IMG/VR virus record: IMGVR_UViG_3300045391_000045
Coordinates: 1-64,000 of that record
DNA: 64,000 nucleotides
Direction: 5' to 3' (one strand)
DNA from: a virus
Shown here in pieces: positions 7,316-29,885 of this stretch (the stretch's first letter is position 1; every line of letters starts with the position of its first letter). The notes under the pieces were generated by a model. That model searched no databases. It had not been told where the DNA came from and saw only the letters and a list, made by a program, of their open reading frames with translations. The position numbers were made by a program, and so were the translations under genes.

Positions 7316-7868
7316 TATCGATGGCGTAATGTACGATTTCGCTGAATCGCTTCGCCAATACATGAGGTACTTTGGTTATGACAAGAAGTATAAGATGTGT
7401 GAGGGTGAAGTCAGCGAATGGTACTTTTACCGTCATTGGGGCATGACAGACAGTGAGTTCGTAAACCACTGTCACAAGGGTGTGGACGCAGGGTTCGTCT
7501 TTGCCCACGGAGGCACCCGTGACAATTCTTCTGACGCTGTGAGATTTGTGAAGGACCTAGGTCACTCGGTTCATATCATCACGGACAGAAGTTTTGGTAG
7601 CACCCCTGAACGGTCCCACTTTGCCACTAGGCAGTGGCTCTATCTGAACGACATTCCGTATGATACGATTGACTTCTCTGCTGACAAGACGTGTCGAGAG
7701 ACTGACATGTTCATTGAGGACAAGTTGGAGAACTATGATGCACTTGTAGCGGCGGGTGTAGACTGCTACCTTGTAAACAGGCCATGGAACATGGTTCCTG
7801 GAGATGACAGGAAGCGTATCAAGAGTATCCAAGAGTATGCTACAATTATTGGAAATCTTAGTGTTTGA
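7299..7868 (+). CDS. HAD-family 5'(3')-deoxyribonucleotidase
   Basis: N-terminal GFDIDGV (DxDxV HAD motif I). Confidence 0.6.
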   Translation: MRVGFDIDGVMYDFAESLRQYMRYFGYDKKYKMCEGEVSEWYFYRHWGMTDSEFVNHCHKGVDAGFVFAHGGTRDNSSDAVRFVKDLGHSVHIITDRSFGSTPERSHFATRQWLYLNDIPYDTIDFSADKTCRETDMFIEDKLENYDALVAAGVDCYLVNRPWNMVPGDDRKRIKSIQEYATIIGNLSV

Positions 7869-15114: not shown

Positions 15115-15139
15115 TTCTAAACTTCTAGCCCTAACAATT

Positions 15140-15263
15140 TCGGGTCGGAGTTTCTTGGTTACCTTACTATGCATGAGAAGTTGTCGGTTCGAATCCGGCC
15201 GGGTCCATTCATGGGCCTGTAGTTTAATTGGCAAAACTTACACCGAGGAACGTTTCATATCCG
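15140..15263 (+). ncRNA. Y RNA-like (YrlA-like) unit f with permuted tRNA-like module
   Basis: 15183-15207 GTCGG-TTCGAAT-CCGGC-CGGGTCC-A, loop TTCAT, then 15213 GGGCCTG-TA-GTTT-AATTGGCA-AAAC; acceptor halves pair 7/7 with wobbles; bounded by GGGTCGG and CATATCCG. Confidence 0.5.
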
Positions 15264-15306
15264 TCTTAATTGTTAGGGCTAAGCTTTTGTCTAGAAAAGG
15301 AGAGAC

Positions 15307-15493
15307 AATGCCTCGCTACGAGAAGAAGGTCAAGATTAACGCAAACCTCGTAAAGAAGTATGACGAGGAATACTACCGAGTCCTTGACGATGTGCAGATG
15401 CGTGAGCTAAAGTTCAAGGGACATGTCCGGCCGGAAGGTAAGGTTGTTGAAACCAGGACACACATCATCAGCTATTACATTGAGGTGGATTGA
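15307..15493 (+). CDS. hypothetical protein
   Basis: 62 aa, RBS AAAAGGAGAGACA. Confidence 0.45.
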
Positions 15494-15933: not shown

Positions 15934-17550
15934 ATGTCTAATGCACTTGGTAAGTTTGCTGCTTCTCAGAAGCAGGAGCGCGTTGCTACGCCTCAGACAA
16001 AGCGTACCCCTGGTCGTACGGATGAGGTCAAGAACAACGCGGGCGGGTTTGTGTTCAAGGTAGACGACAAGTCTCGTCTTGAGCGCTTCCTGGTGTTGGG
16101 TACTGACAAGGGTACCTATTACGTTGGTGAGCAGAAGTTGACGGCTCAGAACATTTCCTTCCTGAAGGAGATGGTCCGTAAGGATGAGCGTCTGGTCGTG
16201 GACACTGCTGTTGACGTCTCTGTAAACGCTCGTGCGCTTAAGAATTCTCCTGCGCTGTTCGCTATGGCTCTGGTCATGACGGAGGGCAAGGACAAGGCTT
16301 ACGCTCGTGAGGCCGTACAGAAGGTTGCTCGTACGTCTACCCACCTTTTCGAGTACGCACAGTACATCGATGACCTGGGTGGTTGGGGTCGAGCAAAGCG
16401 TCGTTCTGTCGCTGAGTGGTACGAGAACAAGTCTATCGATGCGCTTGCGTATCAGGCTGTGAAGTACCGTCAGAGGAACGGTTGGACGCACCGTGACCTT
16501 TTCCGTCTTGCTCACCCTCAGGGTGTAGACCAGGGTGTTGGTAACTTCATCCTTGGCAAGGACGTTGAGGCTGAGGTGGAAATTCTTAAGGGCTTCGCTG
16601 CAATGCAGTCTGCGACTTCGGTCAAGGATGTTATTCGCACGCTGGAGACTTTCAAGAACCTTCCTTGGGAGACCATCCCTACTCAGTTCCTCAAGGATGT
16701 GAAGGTCTGGAAGACTCTGTTCTACAACGGTCAGCTTCGTGGCCAGGCTCTCATTCGCAACATTACTCGACTCGCTCGAATTGGTGCGTTTGATGACATG
16801 GTTTTCGCAACTGACTACGCGAACGCAATTGCTAACCAGGAAATGATTCAGAAGACTCGTCTTCACCCAATCAACTTCCTGAATGCGGTTGTTGTTCACG
16901 AGAGTGGACAGATTGACCGTAACGGTTACAGCATGTGGAGTGCCGGACGTAAGAAGGATTGGAAGTCTAACGGAAAGATTGTGGATGCTCTCAATGAGGG
17001 ATTCCACATGGCATTCAAGACTGTCGAGCCTTCTGGCAAGAGGACTCTGGTTGCGACTGACGTGTCTGGCTCAATGAGTCAGGCTGCCATCGGACTTGAC
17101 CTCTCTTGTGCTCAGGTTTCTGCGGCTGTTGCTATGACGGTTGCGCGTTCCGAGCCTTACAGTGACATTGTTGGCTTCTCTAGCAGCATTGTTGACTTGG
17201 GCATTACCGCTAAGAGTTCTTTTGCCGACGCAATGCGTAAGGTGAGTAACAGGAACTTTGGTGGTACGGATGCGGCTGCTGCAATTAAGTACGCTAACCA
17301 GAAGGGAATTCAGGTTGACACCTTCGTAGTTATCACTGATAACGAGACGTGGGGCGGAAGCCAGAAGCCTTTCCAGGCACTTAAGCAGTACCGTCAGAAG
17401 ACCGGAATTGATGCGCGTCTTGCGGTTCTCGGTGTGGCGTCTACGGACTTCACCATCGCTGACCCTACGGACCGTGGAATGATGGACTTCGTTGGTTTCG
17501 ATGCAAATGCGCCTAAGGCCCTCGCGGACTTCAGCGCTGGTCGTATCTGA
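15934..17550 (+). CDS. rsr: Ro60-like ribonucleoprotein (TROVE domain + C-terminal vWA/MIDAS)
   Basis: 538 aa; TROVE-like N-terminal region; MIDAS motif VATDVSGSM...TD; RBS AAAGGATTAGAAAAATG. Confidence 0.8.
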   Translation: MSNALGKFAASQKQERVATPQTKRTPGRTDEVKNNAGGFVFKVDDKSRLERFLVLGTDKGTYYVGEQKLTAQNISFLKEMVRKDERLVVDTAVDVSVNARALKNSPALFAMALVMTEGKDKAYAREAVQKVARTSTHLFEYAQYIDDLGGWGRAKRRSVAEWYENKSIDALAYQAVKYRQRNGWTHRDLFRLAHPQGVDQGVGNFILGKDVEAEVEILKGFAAMQSATSVKDVIRTLETFKNLPWETIPTQFLKDVKVWKTLFYNGQLRGQALIRNITRLARIGAFDDMVFATDYANAIANQEMIQKTRLHPINFLNAVVVHESGQIDRNGYSMWSAGRKKDWKSNGKIVDALNEGFHMAFKTVEPSGKRTLVATDVSGSMSQAAIGLDLSCAQVSAAVAMTVARSEPYSDIVGFSSSIVDLGITAKSSFADAMRKVSNRNFGGTDAAAAIKYANQKGIQVDTFVVITDNETWGGSQKPFQALKQYRQKTGIDARLAVLGVASTDFTIADPTDRGMMDFVGFDANAPKALADFSAGRI

Positions 17551-18912: not shown

Positions 18913-18990
18913 GCCCCAGTATCGCCACTGGCTTCTAACCAGTCGTTAACAGCGTAATGGAGTATGCAGGTTCGAATCCTGTCTGGGGTA
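18913..18990 (+). tRNA. atypical tRNA-like gene (anticodon TCT, Arg) with 5-nt D region and 22-nt variable arm
   Basis: acceptor GCCCCAG/CTGGGGT, anticodon arm ACTGG-CTTCTAA-CCAGT, T-arm GCAGG-TTCGAAT-CCTGT; no D-arm can be folded. Confidence 0.4.
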
Positions 18991-21933: not shown

Positions 21934-22083
21934 ATGGTTAATATCAAGAAGAAGCCATTGTATAAGGCTCAGTCCAAGATGGAAGCTGATTCTTGGATTG
22001 ACAGCACCGGCAAGCGTATGTATCCTGGTCAAAAGCTAATCGTTCACCGGCAGGGTGACGAGTGGCACGTCTATAAGGGGTAA
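21934..22083 (+). CDS. small KOW/SH3-like protein starting 2 nt after tRNA-Phe 3' end
   Basis: 49 aa ...GKRMYPGQKLIVHRQGDEWHVYKG; junction ACCACATGG. Confidence 0.4.
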   Translation: MVNIKKKPLYKAQSKMEADSWIDSTGKRMYPGQKLIVHRQGDEWHVYKG

Positions 22084-23630: not shown

Positions 23631-23807
23631 CATGGCAAAGGAAGCAAAGGTAGGCTCCATCGTTTTGATTCTTACAGGAGAGGGCGAAGGAGATACTGCA
23701 ACCGTAGATAGAGTTGACAGAAGTGGCAATATTCGGGCCAAGATGAATAGAGGTCCGAAGTCTGGCCAGTCTGTCTTGTCTCGAAAGGGAAATTACAGGG
23801 TGATTTC

Positions 23808-23981
23808 ATGATTAAGAAGAATGATAAGGTACGCATCTTATACGGAAACCGGGCGGGTGTAATGGCCAAGGTGCTCCGTGTGTATGACACCAATAACATC
23901 AAGGCTAGGGTAATTACTGACGGACCCTTCAAGGGCGAAATCCTTGAGGTAGTCAGAGAAGGTCACTACGCCAAGGCTTGA
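23808..23981 (+). CDS. small KOW/SH3-like protein (paralog family)
   Basis: 57 aa MIKKNDKVRILYGNRAGVMAKVLRV. Confidence 0.45.
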   Translation: MIKKNDKVRILYGNRAGVMAKVLRVYDTNNIKARVITDGPFKGEILEVVREGHYAKA

Positions 23982-24386: not shown

Positions 24387-24665
24387 GGGGTAGCTTGGTT
24401 TCGACTTTGCTGGACGGGATATAAACGCAACCCTTCTTGGTCAAAGAAGTAAAACGGGCCAACCAAATAAATGCAAACTCTATGAATGCATCTGCTTTCG
24501 CTCTAGCAGCGTAAAAGCCGGGTTTGTCGGGAACCTAGGAACAGAATCCCGACTAGTACAAAATGTGTAGATAATGTGTAAGACCCTTCAGTGTGATTGA
24601 CAATGGTTGTAGAACGGTTATATGCTAGATAGTAAAGGACGCGGGTTCGACTCCCGCCTACTCCA
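24387..24665 (+). ncRNA. ssrA: tmRNA (ssrA), tag ANSMNASAFALAA
   Basis: 5' GGGGTAGCTTGGTTTCGAC...GGACGGGAT like tmRNA 5' end; in-frame tag GCA AAC TCT ATG AAT GCA TCT GCT TTC GCT CTA GCA GCG TAA (24473-24514); 3' T-arm GCGGG-TTCGACT-CCCGC + acceptor CTACTCC pairing GGGGTAG. Confidence 0.8.
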
Positions 24666-24676
24666 CACAGAAAGAT

Positions 24677-27695: not shown

Positions 27696-27778
27696 GCACA
27701 TATGGCGGAATGGCAGACGCGCTAGCTTGAGGTGCTAGTCTCAGAAATGGGGTGGGAGTTCGACTCTCCCTATGTGCA
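27696..27778 (+). tRNA. tRNA-Leu (anticodon GAG)
   Basis: acceptor GCACATA/TATGTGC perfect, anticodon arm CTAGC-TTGAGGT-GCTAG, long variable arm, T-arm GGGAG-TTCGACT-CTCCC. Confidence 0.6.
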
Positions 27779-27784
27779 CGTCCT

Positions 27785-27934
27785 TGTAGCTTAAAAGGAA
27801 GAGCGCCGTAAAAACGGAGACGGGTCATAATAGGAAAGGTTGCGGATGCACCGAATGGCTCTAGTAGGGTCTGTAGGGAAGCGCGTTTTCCAAGCCTATT
27901 TACAGTGGTGTGAGTTCGAATCTCACCAGGGACA
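27785..27934 (+). ncRNA. interrupted tRNA-like gene: tRNA 5' half and 3' half separated by ~95-nt insertion
   Basis: 5' GTCCTTG-TA-GCTT-AAAAGGAA-GAGC pairs with 3' ...GTGAG-TTCGAAT-CTCAC-CAGGGAC-A; no anticodon arm can be folded between them. Confidence 0.4.
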
Positions 27935-27935
27935 C

Positions 27936-28109
27936 ATGGCTTATCTAAGAGTAGGTGCACAGGTTACAATTTGTGAGAACTTCAATAAGAAGGGTCGAAA
28001 TTGGAAGAACGTAACTGGCTATATTCTTATGATGACTCGCAAGGAAGTGACAGTGCAAACAGAGTATGGTCAAATTATCGTACCTAGGAAAAAGGTGGTG
28101 GCTAATTGA
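27936..28109 (+). CDS. small KOW/SH3-like protein starting 2 nt after tRNA-like 3' end
   Basis: 57 aa MAYLRVGAQVTICENF...; junction CAGGGACACATGG. Confidence 0.4.
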   Translation: MAYLRVGAQVTICENFNKKGRNWKNVTGYILMMTRKEVTVQTEYGQIIVPRKKVVAN

Positions 28110-28381
28110 GCTACATTGTCTGGCGCGACCTTCTTGATATGGATGAGAATGACCCACTTTTCGAGCGGGTTAGCGGTCTTGATGACATTATCACTCAGAA
28201 ATACCAGCAGGGTTGGGTAGAAGATGAATTCGGAATTGGCTGGACCATTGAACAGGCTGAGGAATACATGAAGGAAAAGGGTTATCCATGTATCTTTCCA
28301 GAGCCTAGTTGCTACAATACTCTACTTATCCTGGCATACATGATTAAGAATGGAGAAATTGACCTCAATGGGAATCTTTAA
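28106..28381 (+). CDS. hypothetical protein
   Basis: 91 aa. Confidence 0.45.
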   Translation: MSYIVWRDLLDMDENDPLFERVSGLDDIITQKYQQGWVEDEFGIGWTIEQAEEYMKEKGYPCIFPEPSCYNTLLILAYMIKNGEIDLNGNL

Positions 28382-28538
28382 TCGAGACGGATTCAAGAAC
28401 GGTCAGAAGGTTTATATCCCTAAGATGGCTCAGTATGGTACCGTAAAGATGAAGCGTGGTGGTCTCATCAAGGTTAAGCCGTACAAGAGTAGTGATGAAA
28501 TTTGGGTTCACCCTCATGAGATTGAGGATGGACGCTGA
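28350..28538 (+). CDS. small KOW/SH3-like protein (paralog family)
   Basis: GQKVYIPKMAQYGTVKMKRGGLIKV. Confidence 0.45.
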   Translation: MEKLTSMGIFNRDGFKNGQKVYIPKMAQYGTVKMKRGGLIKVKPYKSSDEIWVHPHEIEDGR

Positions 28539-28817: not shown

Positions 28818-29885
28818 ATGGTACACGTTTCGAAGATTTTCTCGCTCGATGCGTTGCAGAAGGATATCGATGCGGGATTGGTACGTTCACAGGTAAATGA
28901 GGATGGGACGCTCCGCATTTACAATTACACCGAAGAGGTTCAGTACAAGCGAATGTGGAATGACGTTACGCTGAATTGTCGTGGCCTTATTCTCGACAAT
29001 TACATGCACGTTGTTGCTCGTCCATGGAAGAAGTTCTTCAATTTCGGTGAGCGTCCTCTTCTATTCAGCACTGACACTCCGGTTGAGGTGACTGACAAGA
29101 AGGATGGTTCATTGGGTATTCTTTATCGTCACCCAATGACCGGGGATTACCGAATTGCAACTCGTGGCTCTTTCTTGTCTGACCAGGCTATTCACGCTAC
29201 AAAGGTCTGGGACAACAAGTACAGCCACATCGCACAGCCTTGGGATGGAGTTACATTCCTGTTTGAGATTGTGTACCCTGACAATCGCATTGTGCTGGAT
29301 TACGGTGAGCTTGATGACCTAATCTTGCTGGGTGCCGTTCACAATCAGTATGGATGGTACTACGGTCCGAACGAGGCTGCTGGGATGCTCAACTGGACTG
29401 GTCCTGTCACTGAGGTCTTTGAGTACCGGACCACGAACGACTGCTTCAAGGTGCACCGTTCAAATGCTGAGGGTCTGGTAATTCGGGCCGGTAGCGAGAT
29501 GGTCAAGTTGAAGCAGGAGGACTACGTGGCTTTGCACAAGCTAGTCACAGGTCTGAACGAGCGTGCTGTATGGGAGCGCTTGAAGGCAGGCGAGACACGT
29601 GATAGTATCTGTGCATCGCTTCCCGATGAGTTCCACGGATTTGTTGACAAGGTTGCGGATGAGCTAGAGACAAAGTTCAACGAGATTTACCACAGTTCCC
29701 ACGTGGATTACTGTAAGGTGTTGAACATAATGCCTGGCAAATCAAGCATGAGTAAGGCAGACTGGCGTAAGATGTTCGCATCGCACGCTGTTAAGATGCC
29801 TAACTACGACTTGATTTTCAACTACCTTGACAACCGTCCGGTACAGGAGTCTATTTGGAAAATGATTCGTCCTAAGGGCGAGTAA
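28818..29885 (+). CDS. ATP-dependent RNA ligase, Rnl1-like
   Basis: nucleotidyltransferase motif I VTDKKDGSLG (KxDG), 355 aa. Confidence 0.65.
   Translation: MVHVSKIFSLDALQKDIDAGLVRSQVNEDGTLRIYNYTEEVQYKRMWNDVTLNCRGLILDNYMHVVARPWKKFFNFGERPLLFSTDTPVEVTDKKDGSLGILYRHPMTGDYRIATRGSFLSDQAIHATKVWDNKYSHIAQPWDGVTFLFEIVYPDNRIVLDYGELDDLILLGAVHNQYGWYYGPNEAAGMLNWTGPVTEVFEYRTTNDCFKVHRSNAEGLVIRAGSEMVKLKQEDYVALHKLVTGLNERAVWERLKAGETRDSICASLPDEFHGFVDKVADELETKFNEIYHSSHVDYCKVLNIMPGKSSMSKADWRKMFASHAVKMPNYDLIFNYLDNRPVQESIWKMIRPKGE

Follow-up and report, generated by a model that had tools for sequence, protein, structure and literature searches.

Comparative analysis indicates that the plus-strand element at positions 27780-27934 of a 64,000-nucleotide (nt) stretch of viral DNA (positions 1 to 64,000 of IMG/VR record IMGVR_UViG_3300045391_000045; the whole stretch is called the window below) is a conserved gene for a non-coding RNA that is shaped like a transfer RNA (tRNA) and carries a large extra domain, and not a broken or intron-split tRNA. 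The RNA is probably a new kind of Y RNA, a partner of the protein Ro60, whose binding we infer. Bacterial Ro60 and Y RNAs make up an RNA-surveillance system whose effectors and substrates are poorly known, and YrlA is the one well-defined family of bacterial Y RNAs, which mimics tRNA without a free end. The comparison of homologues establishes that the gene family exists, how its RNA is built, that a tertiary signature of tRNA type is present, and that the genes are linked to Ro60 in genomes. The window comes from a Gilsonvirus-type (cluster BE-like) Streptomyces phage, with Gilson, MeganTheeKilla, Francob and Comrade as nearest records, and carries 31 tRNA genes (ARAGORN) together with a transfer-messenger RNA (tmRNA).

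The element reads GUCCUUG-UA-GCUU-AAAAGGAA-GAGC-G ... GUGAG-UUCGAAU-CUCAC-CAGGGAC-A. A previous sequence-only reading had described an acceptor/D/T framework here, and that framework is borne out, with complete pairing; its start at 27785 is corrected, the true 5′ end lying 5 bases earlier, at 27780, where it directly abuts tRNA-Leu(gag) (27696-27779, plus strand). This adjacency is consistent with a common tRNA-type precursor. The 5′ strand of the acceptor stem, GUCCUUG (27780-27786), pairs with the CAGGGAC of 27927-27933 to give 7 base pairs (bp), one of them G-U, and two-sided changes were seen at 7/7 of these pairs across 52 homologues; the 3′ strand and the discriminator A together occupy 27927-27934, and the base after is C. 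The D arm, GCUU-AAAAGGAA-GAGC (27789-27804), has a covarying 4-bp stem and carries A14, A15 and G18G19. Some 105 nt separate it from the T arm, GUGAG-UUCGAAU-CUCAC (27910-27926), which combines a 5-bp stem with a canonical loop that fits UUCRANU in 53/53 members. The frame is far beyond chance. The element thus has the acceptor stem, the D arm with G18G19, the UUCRANY T loop and the Levitt 15:48 pair of a tRNA, and lacks the 5-bp anticodon stem and the 7-nt loop with U33, anticodon and purine 37.

Standard tools passed over this gene. Neither ARAGORN nor the Rfam tRNA model called it as a tRNA, the best result being a sub-threshold partial match of 17 bits, so that, as the sequence-only reading had required, no standard tRNA was found in another register. 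At E<=10, the only Rfam matches were this 17-bit partial tRNA and a spurious YrlA match of 18 bits; the Rfam introns, ribozymes and riboswitches gave no match at the same threshold. The folding energy of the single element sequence was no better than that of shuffled sequences (z = -0.66). Single-sequence thermodynamics are not significant, and the evidence for the element is comparative.

The place of the anticodon arm, after the D arm and G26, is taken by a pseudo-anticodon hairpin at 27806-27823, with the stem CCGU/ACGG and the 10-nt loop AAAAACGGAG (8 nt if an A.G closing pair is counted). The loop contains neither U33 nor an anticodon (AAAAACGGAG or AAAACGGA, conserved as AAAA(A)CGGA(G)), and its length is 8-10 nt in the window type and 7-18 nt in other members. 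The stem of 4-5 bp covaries, appearing as CCGU/ACGG, CAGU/ACUG, GCUG/CAGC and CCCGU/ACGGG. The sequence-only reading was right that a tRNA frame holds a large insert foreign to tRNA; its interpretation changes in that a covarying stem occupies the position of the anticodon arm. Within the loop, AAAACG (27811-27816) is complementary to CGUUUU at 27884-27889, and the two strands likely form a pseudoknot, for which the support is moderate. The inner 4 pairs can form in 94-100% of 52 distinct sequences; compensatory variants are few (AAAGCG/CGCUUU, CAACG/CGUUG and UAAACG/CGUUUA), and wobble changes occur as well.

The remaining ~85 nt occupy the variable-arm position, as in a class II tRNA. The domain opens with a base helix, in which AAUAGG (27829-27834) pairs with CCUAUU (27895-27900) and which covaries as GAUAGG/CCUAUC, UACAGA/UCUGUA and GGUGG/CCACC. 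At 27838-27856, a GG that pairs with the CC of 27890-27891 is followed by the 5′ core UUGCGGAUGCACCGAAU, made up of invariant alignment columns and containing a small hairpin, UGC-GGAU-GCA, and a CCGAA motif. There follows a variable hairpin, Pb (GGCUCU-AGU-AGGGUC, 27857-27871), which ranges from 8 to 78 nt, shows compensatory changes in its distal stem (CGG/CCG, AGG/CCU, GUG/CAC, CUG/CAG, UGG/CCA) and is replaced in Gilson-type phages by a branched insert of 54 nt. The invariant 3′ core UGUAGGGAAGCGCG and the 3′ strand of the pseudoknot, both placed by comparison, fill 27872-27889, and CC-AAG-CCUAUU (27890-27900) supplies, on comparative grounds, the 3′ strands of the two helices that close the domain. 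The whole domain measures ~70 nt here, and in relatives it can reach ~150 nt.

Across the family, the core keeps the near-invariant order UUGCGGAUGCACCG, hairpin, AGGGAAGCGCG, with the consensus UUGC-RGAN-GCACCG(AAU) ... (U)RGGGAAGCGCG and about 30 invariant nt in total. Conserved strings include GGGAAGCGCG and GCACCG, the invariance of the latter following by construction from the pattern searches, and UUGC-RGAN-GCACCG is present in ~130/147 distinct cores. Two alternative pairings of the core were rejected because UUGCAG and CGCUAG variants break both of them: the UUGCGG/CUGUAG helix proposed by RNAalifold, disrupted by a frequent G-to-A change (UUGCAG) and by the CGCUAG variants, and the GCG/CGU helix of the minimum-free-energy fold, which also competes with the pseudoknot. 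Longer members of 200-267 nt (loci L153, L161, L152, L125, L013 and L027) hold extra conserved modules between the pseudo-anticodon hairpin and the core, among them a CCGUAAAAGGC hairpin and a CCUGCUAC...GGGGUGUGGG pairing (for example L153:5699-5915, minus strand).

We then examined covariation in 52 distinct homologues. Pairs were counted on segments extracted by rule, because the covariance-model alignment mis-placed the 5′ ends of long variants. Two-sided changes were observed at 22/26 pairs, and the covariation score was 0.66; shuffles gave 0.17 and slid partners 0.08-0.13. Compensatory substitutions occur in each of the four stems (acceptor, D, anticodon-like and T); since the acceptor, T and pseudo-anticodon stems were pre-selected as paired, their percentage of pairing is set by construction, whereas the diversity of their pair types is not. 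Acceptor stems differ wholly between phage groups (GUCCUUG, GCUUUCG, GCCCCCG), and pairing is perfect each time, as it is in the T stems. The sequence of the acceptor stem and the discriminator is not conserved across members.

The nucleotides that hold a tRNA in its tertiary fold are kept: U8, A14, G18G19, the UUCRANU T loop and the Levitt 15:48 pair, which is A:U in 33 and G:C in 16 of 53 sequences. A CCA is genomically encoded after the discriminator in 6/53 members, where ~1 would be expected by chance, and a C follows the discriminator in most members, as it does in the window phage's own tRNAs. Given this tertiary signature and the open acceptor, the element RNA is expected to adopt a true L-shape whose 3′ end is open, as in a tRNA.

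The family proved to be widespread. A blastn search detected it in 23 records of Streptomyces phages, which fall into three unrelated genome types: the Gilsonviruses (~128 kb), which hold a 155-nt and a 190-nt form, phages of ~115 kb (pSt2308, GiJojo, Alone3, LuckySocke) and phages of ~185 kb (Kela, JustBecause). In all 23 it lies inside a tRNA array and is either unannotated or overlapped by a small 'hypothetical protein' open reading frame (ORF). Pattern scans with the invariant core added 23 IMG/VR loci, 28 contigs of bacterial genomes or metagenome-assembled genomes, and at least 120 metagenome loci, giving at least 147 distinct cores and member lengths of 148-267 nt. Many of the bacterial contigs are from Myxococcota, some of megabase size; others are from the cyanobacterium Crocosphaera chwakensis, from Xanthocytophaga and Chitinophagaceae (Bacteroidota), and from Clostridia and Ruminococcus. 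The sources of the family include soil, gut and freshwater phages as well as bacterial chromosomes. The first IMG/VR pattern specified 17 bases, and 100 of its 119 loci were chance matches, which we reused as a control. A covariance model built from 12 phage copies gave members scores of 41-178 bits, whereas ordinary tRNAs, for which the insert counts as a deletion, did not exceed 40 bits. One 136-kb phage contig (IMGVR_UViG_3300048575_000082, L127) carries two copies of different subtypes 5 kb apart on the minus strand, at 2160-2396 and 7551-7790, one of which has the compensated pseudoknot AAAAGCG/CGCUUUU.

No family of Rfam 15 matches the element, and a literature search, which included the invariant core strings, found no description of it in the papers covered. 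We conclude that the family is widespread in phages and bacteria and so far undescribed.

A link to Ro60 came from the gene neighborhood. The window encodes a Ro60 orthologue, rsr, at 15934-17550 (plus strand; Pfam TROVE 3e-37, Ro60 vWA 5e-56), which we propose as the protein partner; it lies on the strand of the element, 10.2 kb upstream, and its counterparts in related phages are annotated as 'Ro-like RNA binding protein'. In a Xanthocytophaga locus (L165), an Rfam scan placed a YrlA-like RNA (50 bits) between a TROVE-domain gene and the element, in the order rsr, YrlA-like RNA, element. This finding led us to search the flanks of other members for Ro60, using tblastn and a Ro60 profile. Ro60 genes were detected in 17/138 non-redundant member loci; 17/17 are on the strand of the element, 15 are downstream, 10 are within ~1.1 kb and several are only 20-270 nt away. 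No Ro60 gene was found in the 100 control loci, the chance matches of the first IMG/VR scan, which amount to 948 kb. Among the nearest downstream ORFs of 99 loci, TROVE/Ro60-vWA was the sole family seen more than twice; RtcB, RNA ligase, YqeY and EF-Tu each occurred once or twice as neighbors. Among cultured phages, 3/3 lineages with the element encode Ro60, which is 2.4-2.9 kb downstream on the same strand in the 115-kb phages and 10 kb upstream in Gilsonviruses.

This arrangement is the one described for known Y RNAs, whose genes in bacteria and phages lie beside rsr on the same strand, usually two or more per genome, and whose products share tRNA-like domains and a GNCGAAN0-1G/CGAA motif that contacts Ro60 (PMC4201824; PMC12135203; bioRxiv 10.1101/312249). 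The invariant GCACCGAAUGG of the element is a near match to the GNCGAAN0-1G motif, and about half of the cores contain CCGAAUGG, where other subtypes have CCGGAC or CCGGGC. The window also holds an unannotated canonical YrlA-type Y RNA at 15126-15281 (plus strand), ~650 nt upstream of rsr, with a partial match to the Rfam YrlA model (28.5 bits, E = 0.004) and a fold z of -4.1. T and D arms and a closed acceptor-like hairpin are combined in it with a terminal stem of 14 bp and a bulged region with UCGGGUCGGAG. With this RNA beside rsr, the element would be a second and different Ro60-associated RNA. The UUCGGGUCGGA motif recurs ~85 nt further upstream of the YrlA-type RNA (~15055), which suggests a second Y RNA there, and an ORF at 15155-15493 that overlaps the YrlA-type RNA may be spurious.

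Several observations weigh against a partnership with Ro60. No Ro60 gene was present in the retrieved flanks of 121/138 member loci, many of these flanks being shorter than 2 kb. The copy in Crocosphaera and several of those in Myxococcota sit by themselves among housekeeping genes, and the chromosomal copies share no common neighbor family (PLP decarboxylase, OEP, FHA and inositol monophosphatase were seen). In Kela and JustBecause, rsr is 36 kb away on the opposite strand. When the search was reversed, the element was found within 6 kb of only 1/80 IMG/VR Ro60 loci (L209), and the Ro60-positive phage Paradiddles has no element in the 44 kb searched, which include its rsr and tRNA array. The CGAA motif of the window element is ACCGAAUG and not GNCGAA, its first-position G being an A, and whole subtypes (CACCGGACAG..., CACCGGGCAC...) have no CGAA motif. 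Neither the YrlA nor the Y_RNA model of Rfam matches the element. Because of the loci without rsr, the solitary copies, the 1/80 result and the subtypes without the motif, Ro60 binding remains an inference, one that we hold to be somewhat likelier than its opposite.

A different tRNA-framed RNA lies directly upstream of the Ro60 gene of another phage (IMGVR_UViG_3300050333_000134, L197), at 399-528 and 528-690. It has acceptor, D and T arms and a variable loop of normal length, while its anticodon loop is replaced by a ~55-nt insert with GGGCCGAAUCGGG; two further GGGCCGAAGC units come after it. RNAs that are built on a tRNA scaffold and linked to Ro60 may thus have arisen more than once.

The explanation that best accommodates the data as a whole, and that we hold with moderate confidence, is that the element specifies a stable non-coding RNA on a tRNA scaffold, acting as a Y-RNA-type partner of phage Ro60. 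The RNA would be transcribed within the phage tRNA cluster, excised by RNase P and the tRNA 3′-end machinery, and then presumably provided with a CCA end. Its anticodon arm would be replaced by a short hairpin whose loop is locked in the pseudoknot, and Ro60 would bind to the invariant core, whose CCGAA motif resembles the contact site known from other Y RNAs. The part that resembles tRNA could then serve as a tRNA-shaped handle for an effector that recognizes tRNA, or for an exonuclease such as PNPase; known Ro60–Y RNA–PNPase machines degrade or repair structured RNA. Of the three possibilities named by the sequence-only reading, an intron, a Y-RNA-like chimera or a pseudogene, the evidence favors the Y-RNA-like chimera.

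A bolder version, which we put forward with considerable doubt, is that the element represents a new RNA class with a full tRNA body, a free CCA end, an anticodon loop silenced by a 'codon-anticodon' pseudoknot in cis and a universally conserved ~30-nt core in the variable arm. In contrast to all known Y RNAs, such an RNA could pass as a real tRNA and perhaps even be aminoacylated. Its tRNA identity could serve to bring Ro60 or exonucleases to the tRNA-processing or translation machinery; alternatively, it could act on the ribosome or on a tRNA-targeting defence system without Ro60.

The most serious competitor, although we regard it as rather unlikely, is a structured RNA on a tRNA scaffold whose function is independent of Ro60, for example a decoy or inhibitor of a tRNA-binding enzyme or anticodon nuclease, a tRNA-mRNA mimic that binds the ribosome, a ligand-binding domain, or an RNA that receives an amino acid for a purpose other than translation. 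Linkage to Ro60 would then reflect shared membership of phage clusters of RNA-repair and tRNA genes, and a ligase gene of the Rnl1 type (28818-29885, plus strand; Pfam RNA_lig_T4_1, 2e-13) does lie 0.9 kb downstream of the element in the window. That the core is invariant in actinophages, Myxococcota, cyanobacteria and Bacteroidota alike suggests a target that is universally conserved; in addition, rsr is not close by in most loci, and some chromosomal copies stand alone. The open acceptor end, the CCA encoded in some members and the resemblance of the pseudoknot to an anticodon-codon helix in cis also speak for it. Against such a function stands the recurrence of Ro60, alone among protein families, beside the element, on the same strand and directly downstream, as known for Y RNA genes; moreover, the acceptor stem and discriminator are not conserved, so any aminoacylation identity would have to lie in the core.

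The remaining explanations fare far worse. Bacterial and phage tRNA genes can contain group I introns, the tRNA frame of the element is perfect, and none of the 31 ARAGORN tRNAs in the window is a tRNA-Thr, all of which speaks for a tRNA, perhaps the missing tRNA-Thr, interrupted by a self-splicing or protein-dependent intron. Nevertheless, no splice restores a 5-bp stem and 7-nt loop with U33 and an anticodon, the group I and II models gave no match at E<=10, and group I introns are much longer than 95 nt. With its ~85-95 nt, the insert is in the variable-arm position and not in the anticodon loop, and the pseudo-anticodon loop, itself conserved, is predicted to pair with it. Frames whose acceptor stems are unrelated carry this same insert, and so do phages with full tRNA sets, GiJojo having three tRNA-Thr genes. 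We rate the intron as very improbable. We give even less weight to a small tmRNA-like RNA in ribosome rescue. The tRNA-like acceptor and T arm, large internal insert, pseudoknot and location in a phage tRNA cluster all recall tmRNA, but the window already contains a full tmRNA at 24387-24666, and the element has an intact D stem, C3-G70 in place of G3:U70, no reading frame or tag and no match to a tmRNA model. Least probable of all is a decaying pseudogene or a chance tRNA-like arrangement without function: the tRNA finders were silent and the fold z-score is unremarkable, yet it is already refuted by at least 147 distinct homologues from several phyla, in which every helix shows compensatory changes and 30 nt of the core are invariant.

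The sequence-only reading had also suggested a duplicated module of tRNA-Phe and a downstream KOW gene, and this was not supported. The two downstream proteins, of 57 and 49 amino acids, are dissimilar and could not be aligned at E<=100; their ORFs (27936-28109 and 21934-22083) have no Pfam match, so that the KOW label was not confirmed. As to the frame, tRNA-Phe ties with tRNA-Arg(cct) as the nearest, and an ATG directly after a tRNA is common in the cluster, being found at several tRNAs.

Other features of the window were recorded alongside. Small ORFs of 49-62 amino acids lie between tRNA genes at 21934-22083, 23632-23811, 23808-23981, 27936-28109 and 28350-28538, several with a start codon 1-2 nt from a tRNA 3′ end (…ACAUGG). 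The 31 ARAGORN tRNAs, within 11742-44030, cover 19 amino acids; a tRNA-Thr may lie outside the window, and related 115-kb phages have three tRNA-Thr genes. Directly after tRNA-Arg(gcg), a tRNA-like gene at 18913-18990 (plus strand; 34 bits in Rfam, missed by ARAGORN) has 4 nt in place of the D arm, the anticodon loop CUUCUAA (UCU, Arg) and a variable region of ~19 nt, and may be an unusual D-armless tRNA. Together, the RNA ligase, Ro60, Y RNAs, tmRNA and tRNAs suggest a cluster for RNA repair and translation maintenance. In the Xanthocytophaga locus, a tRNA with anticodon CUA (L165:3083-3156; an amber suppressor, labeled 'Pyl' by ARAGORN) hints at a stop-codon-recoding prophage.

If the proposal is true, the element defines a second, structurally distinct Y RNA family, and its open acceptor end and 30-nt core provide a signature for finding Ro60-linked RNAs. 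It also lets one ask whether proteins and enzymes that handle genuine tRNAs (RNase P, the CCA-adding enzyme, synthetases, EF-Tu) are the route by which a tRNA-like module acts. Finally, it exposes an annotation gap: Rfam does not include the element, and all deposited phage genomes that we examined either leave it without annotation or label it wrongly as a small ORF.

Among systems outside the Y RNAs, the class II tRNAs (Leu, Ser, Tyr, Sec) have the same arm order, a long variable arm and the tRNA tertiary nucleotides in common with the element, but their variable arm is 10-25 nt as against 70-150 nt, and the loop of the element, which has no U33 or anticodon, is predicted to be paired; tRNA models give it no score. 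Like tmRNA, the element surrounds a large pseudoknotted insert with a tRNA-like acceptor and T arm and occurs in phage tRNA clusters; it differs in having an intact D stem and neither a message region nor the alanine identity pair. Phage T4, which is not known to have a Ro60, makes the stable RNAs C and D, small species of unknown function that are co-encoded and co-processed with its tRNAs. As for Y RNAs, a drawing of Yrn1 of Deinococcus radiodurans is possible in which T-, D- and anticodon-like arms appear without permutation (PMC4201824). The GGUCCGA/CGAA-type contact motif of Yrn1 and metazoan Y RNAs is similar to CACCGAAUGG and GGGUCUGUAG of the element, whereas their terminal stem is the Ro60 site and that of the element is a sequence-variable acceptor stem.

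YrlA (RF02553) is closer. It is a tRNA-mimicking Y RNA of bacteria and mycobacteriophages in which the acceptor is a closed hairpin without a CCA end, the two ends of the RNA belong to a stem that binds Ro60 and extends the anticodon stem, and there is no anticodon-like loop (bioRxiv 10.1101/312249). Both RNAs are non-coding, with a tRNA-like D arm, T arm, elbow and Levitt pair, and in both the tRNA-like part is joined to a second conserved module, which in YrlA and in some subtypes of the element contains a CGAA-type motif. Like YrlA, the element can be encoded near rsr on the same strand, as in the 17/138 loci above. Both RNAs are found in phages with large tRNA arrays, and the commonest D stem (GCUC/GAGC) and T stem (GCGGG/CCCGC) of the element are those of the YrlA consensus. 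The element does not reach the YrlA gathering score of 69 bits, its 18-bit match spanning the T arm of tRNA-Leu and its own D arm, and the YrlA model did not match the members in the 7 genome-contig loci tested. In contrast to YrlA, the ends of the element are at an open acceptor stem (tRNA positions 1 and 73), a capped pseudo-anticodon hairpin engages in a pseudoknot, and the extra domain issues from the variable-arm position; moreover, the element and YrlA-type RNAs co-exist in the window and in the Xanthocytophaga locus. Judged by these likenesses in sequence and predicted structure, the element is a tRNA-mimicking, Ro60-linked RNA whose nearest known family is YrlA.

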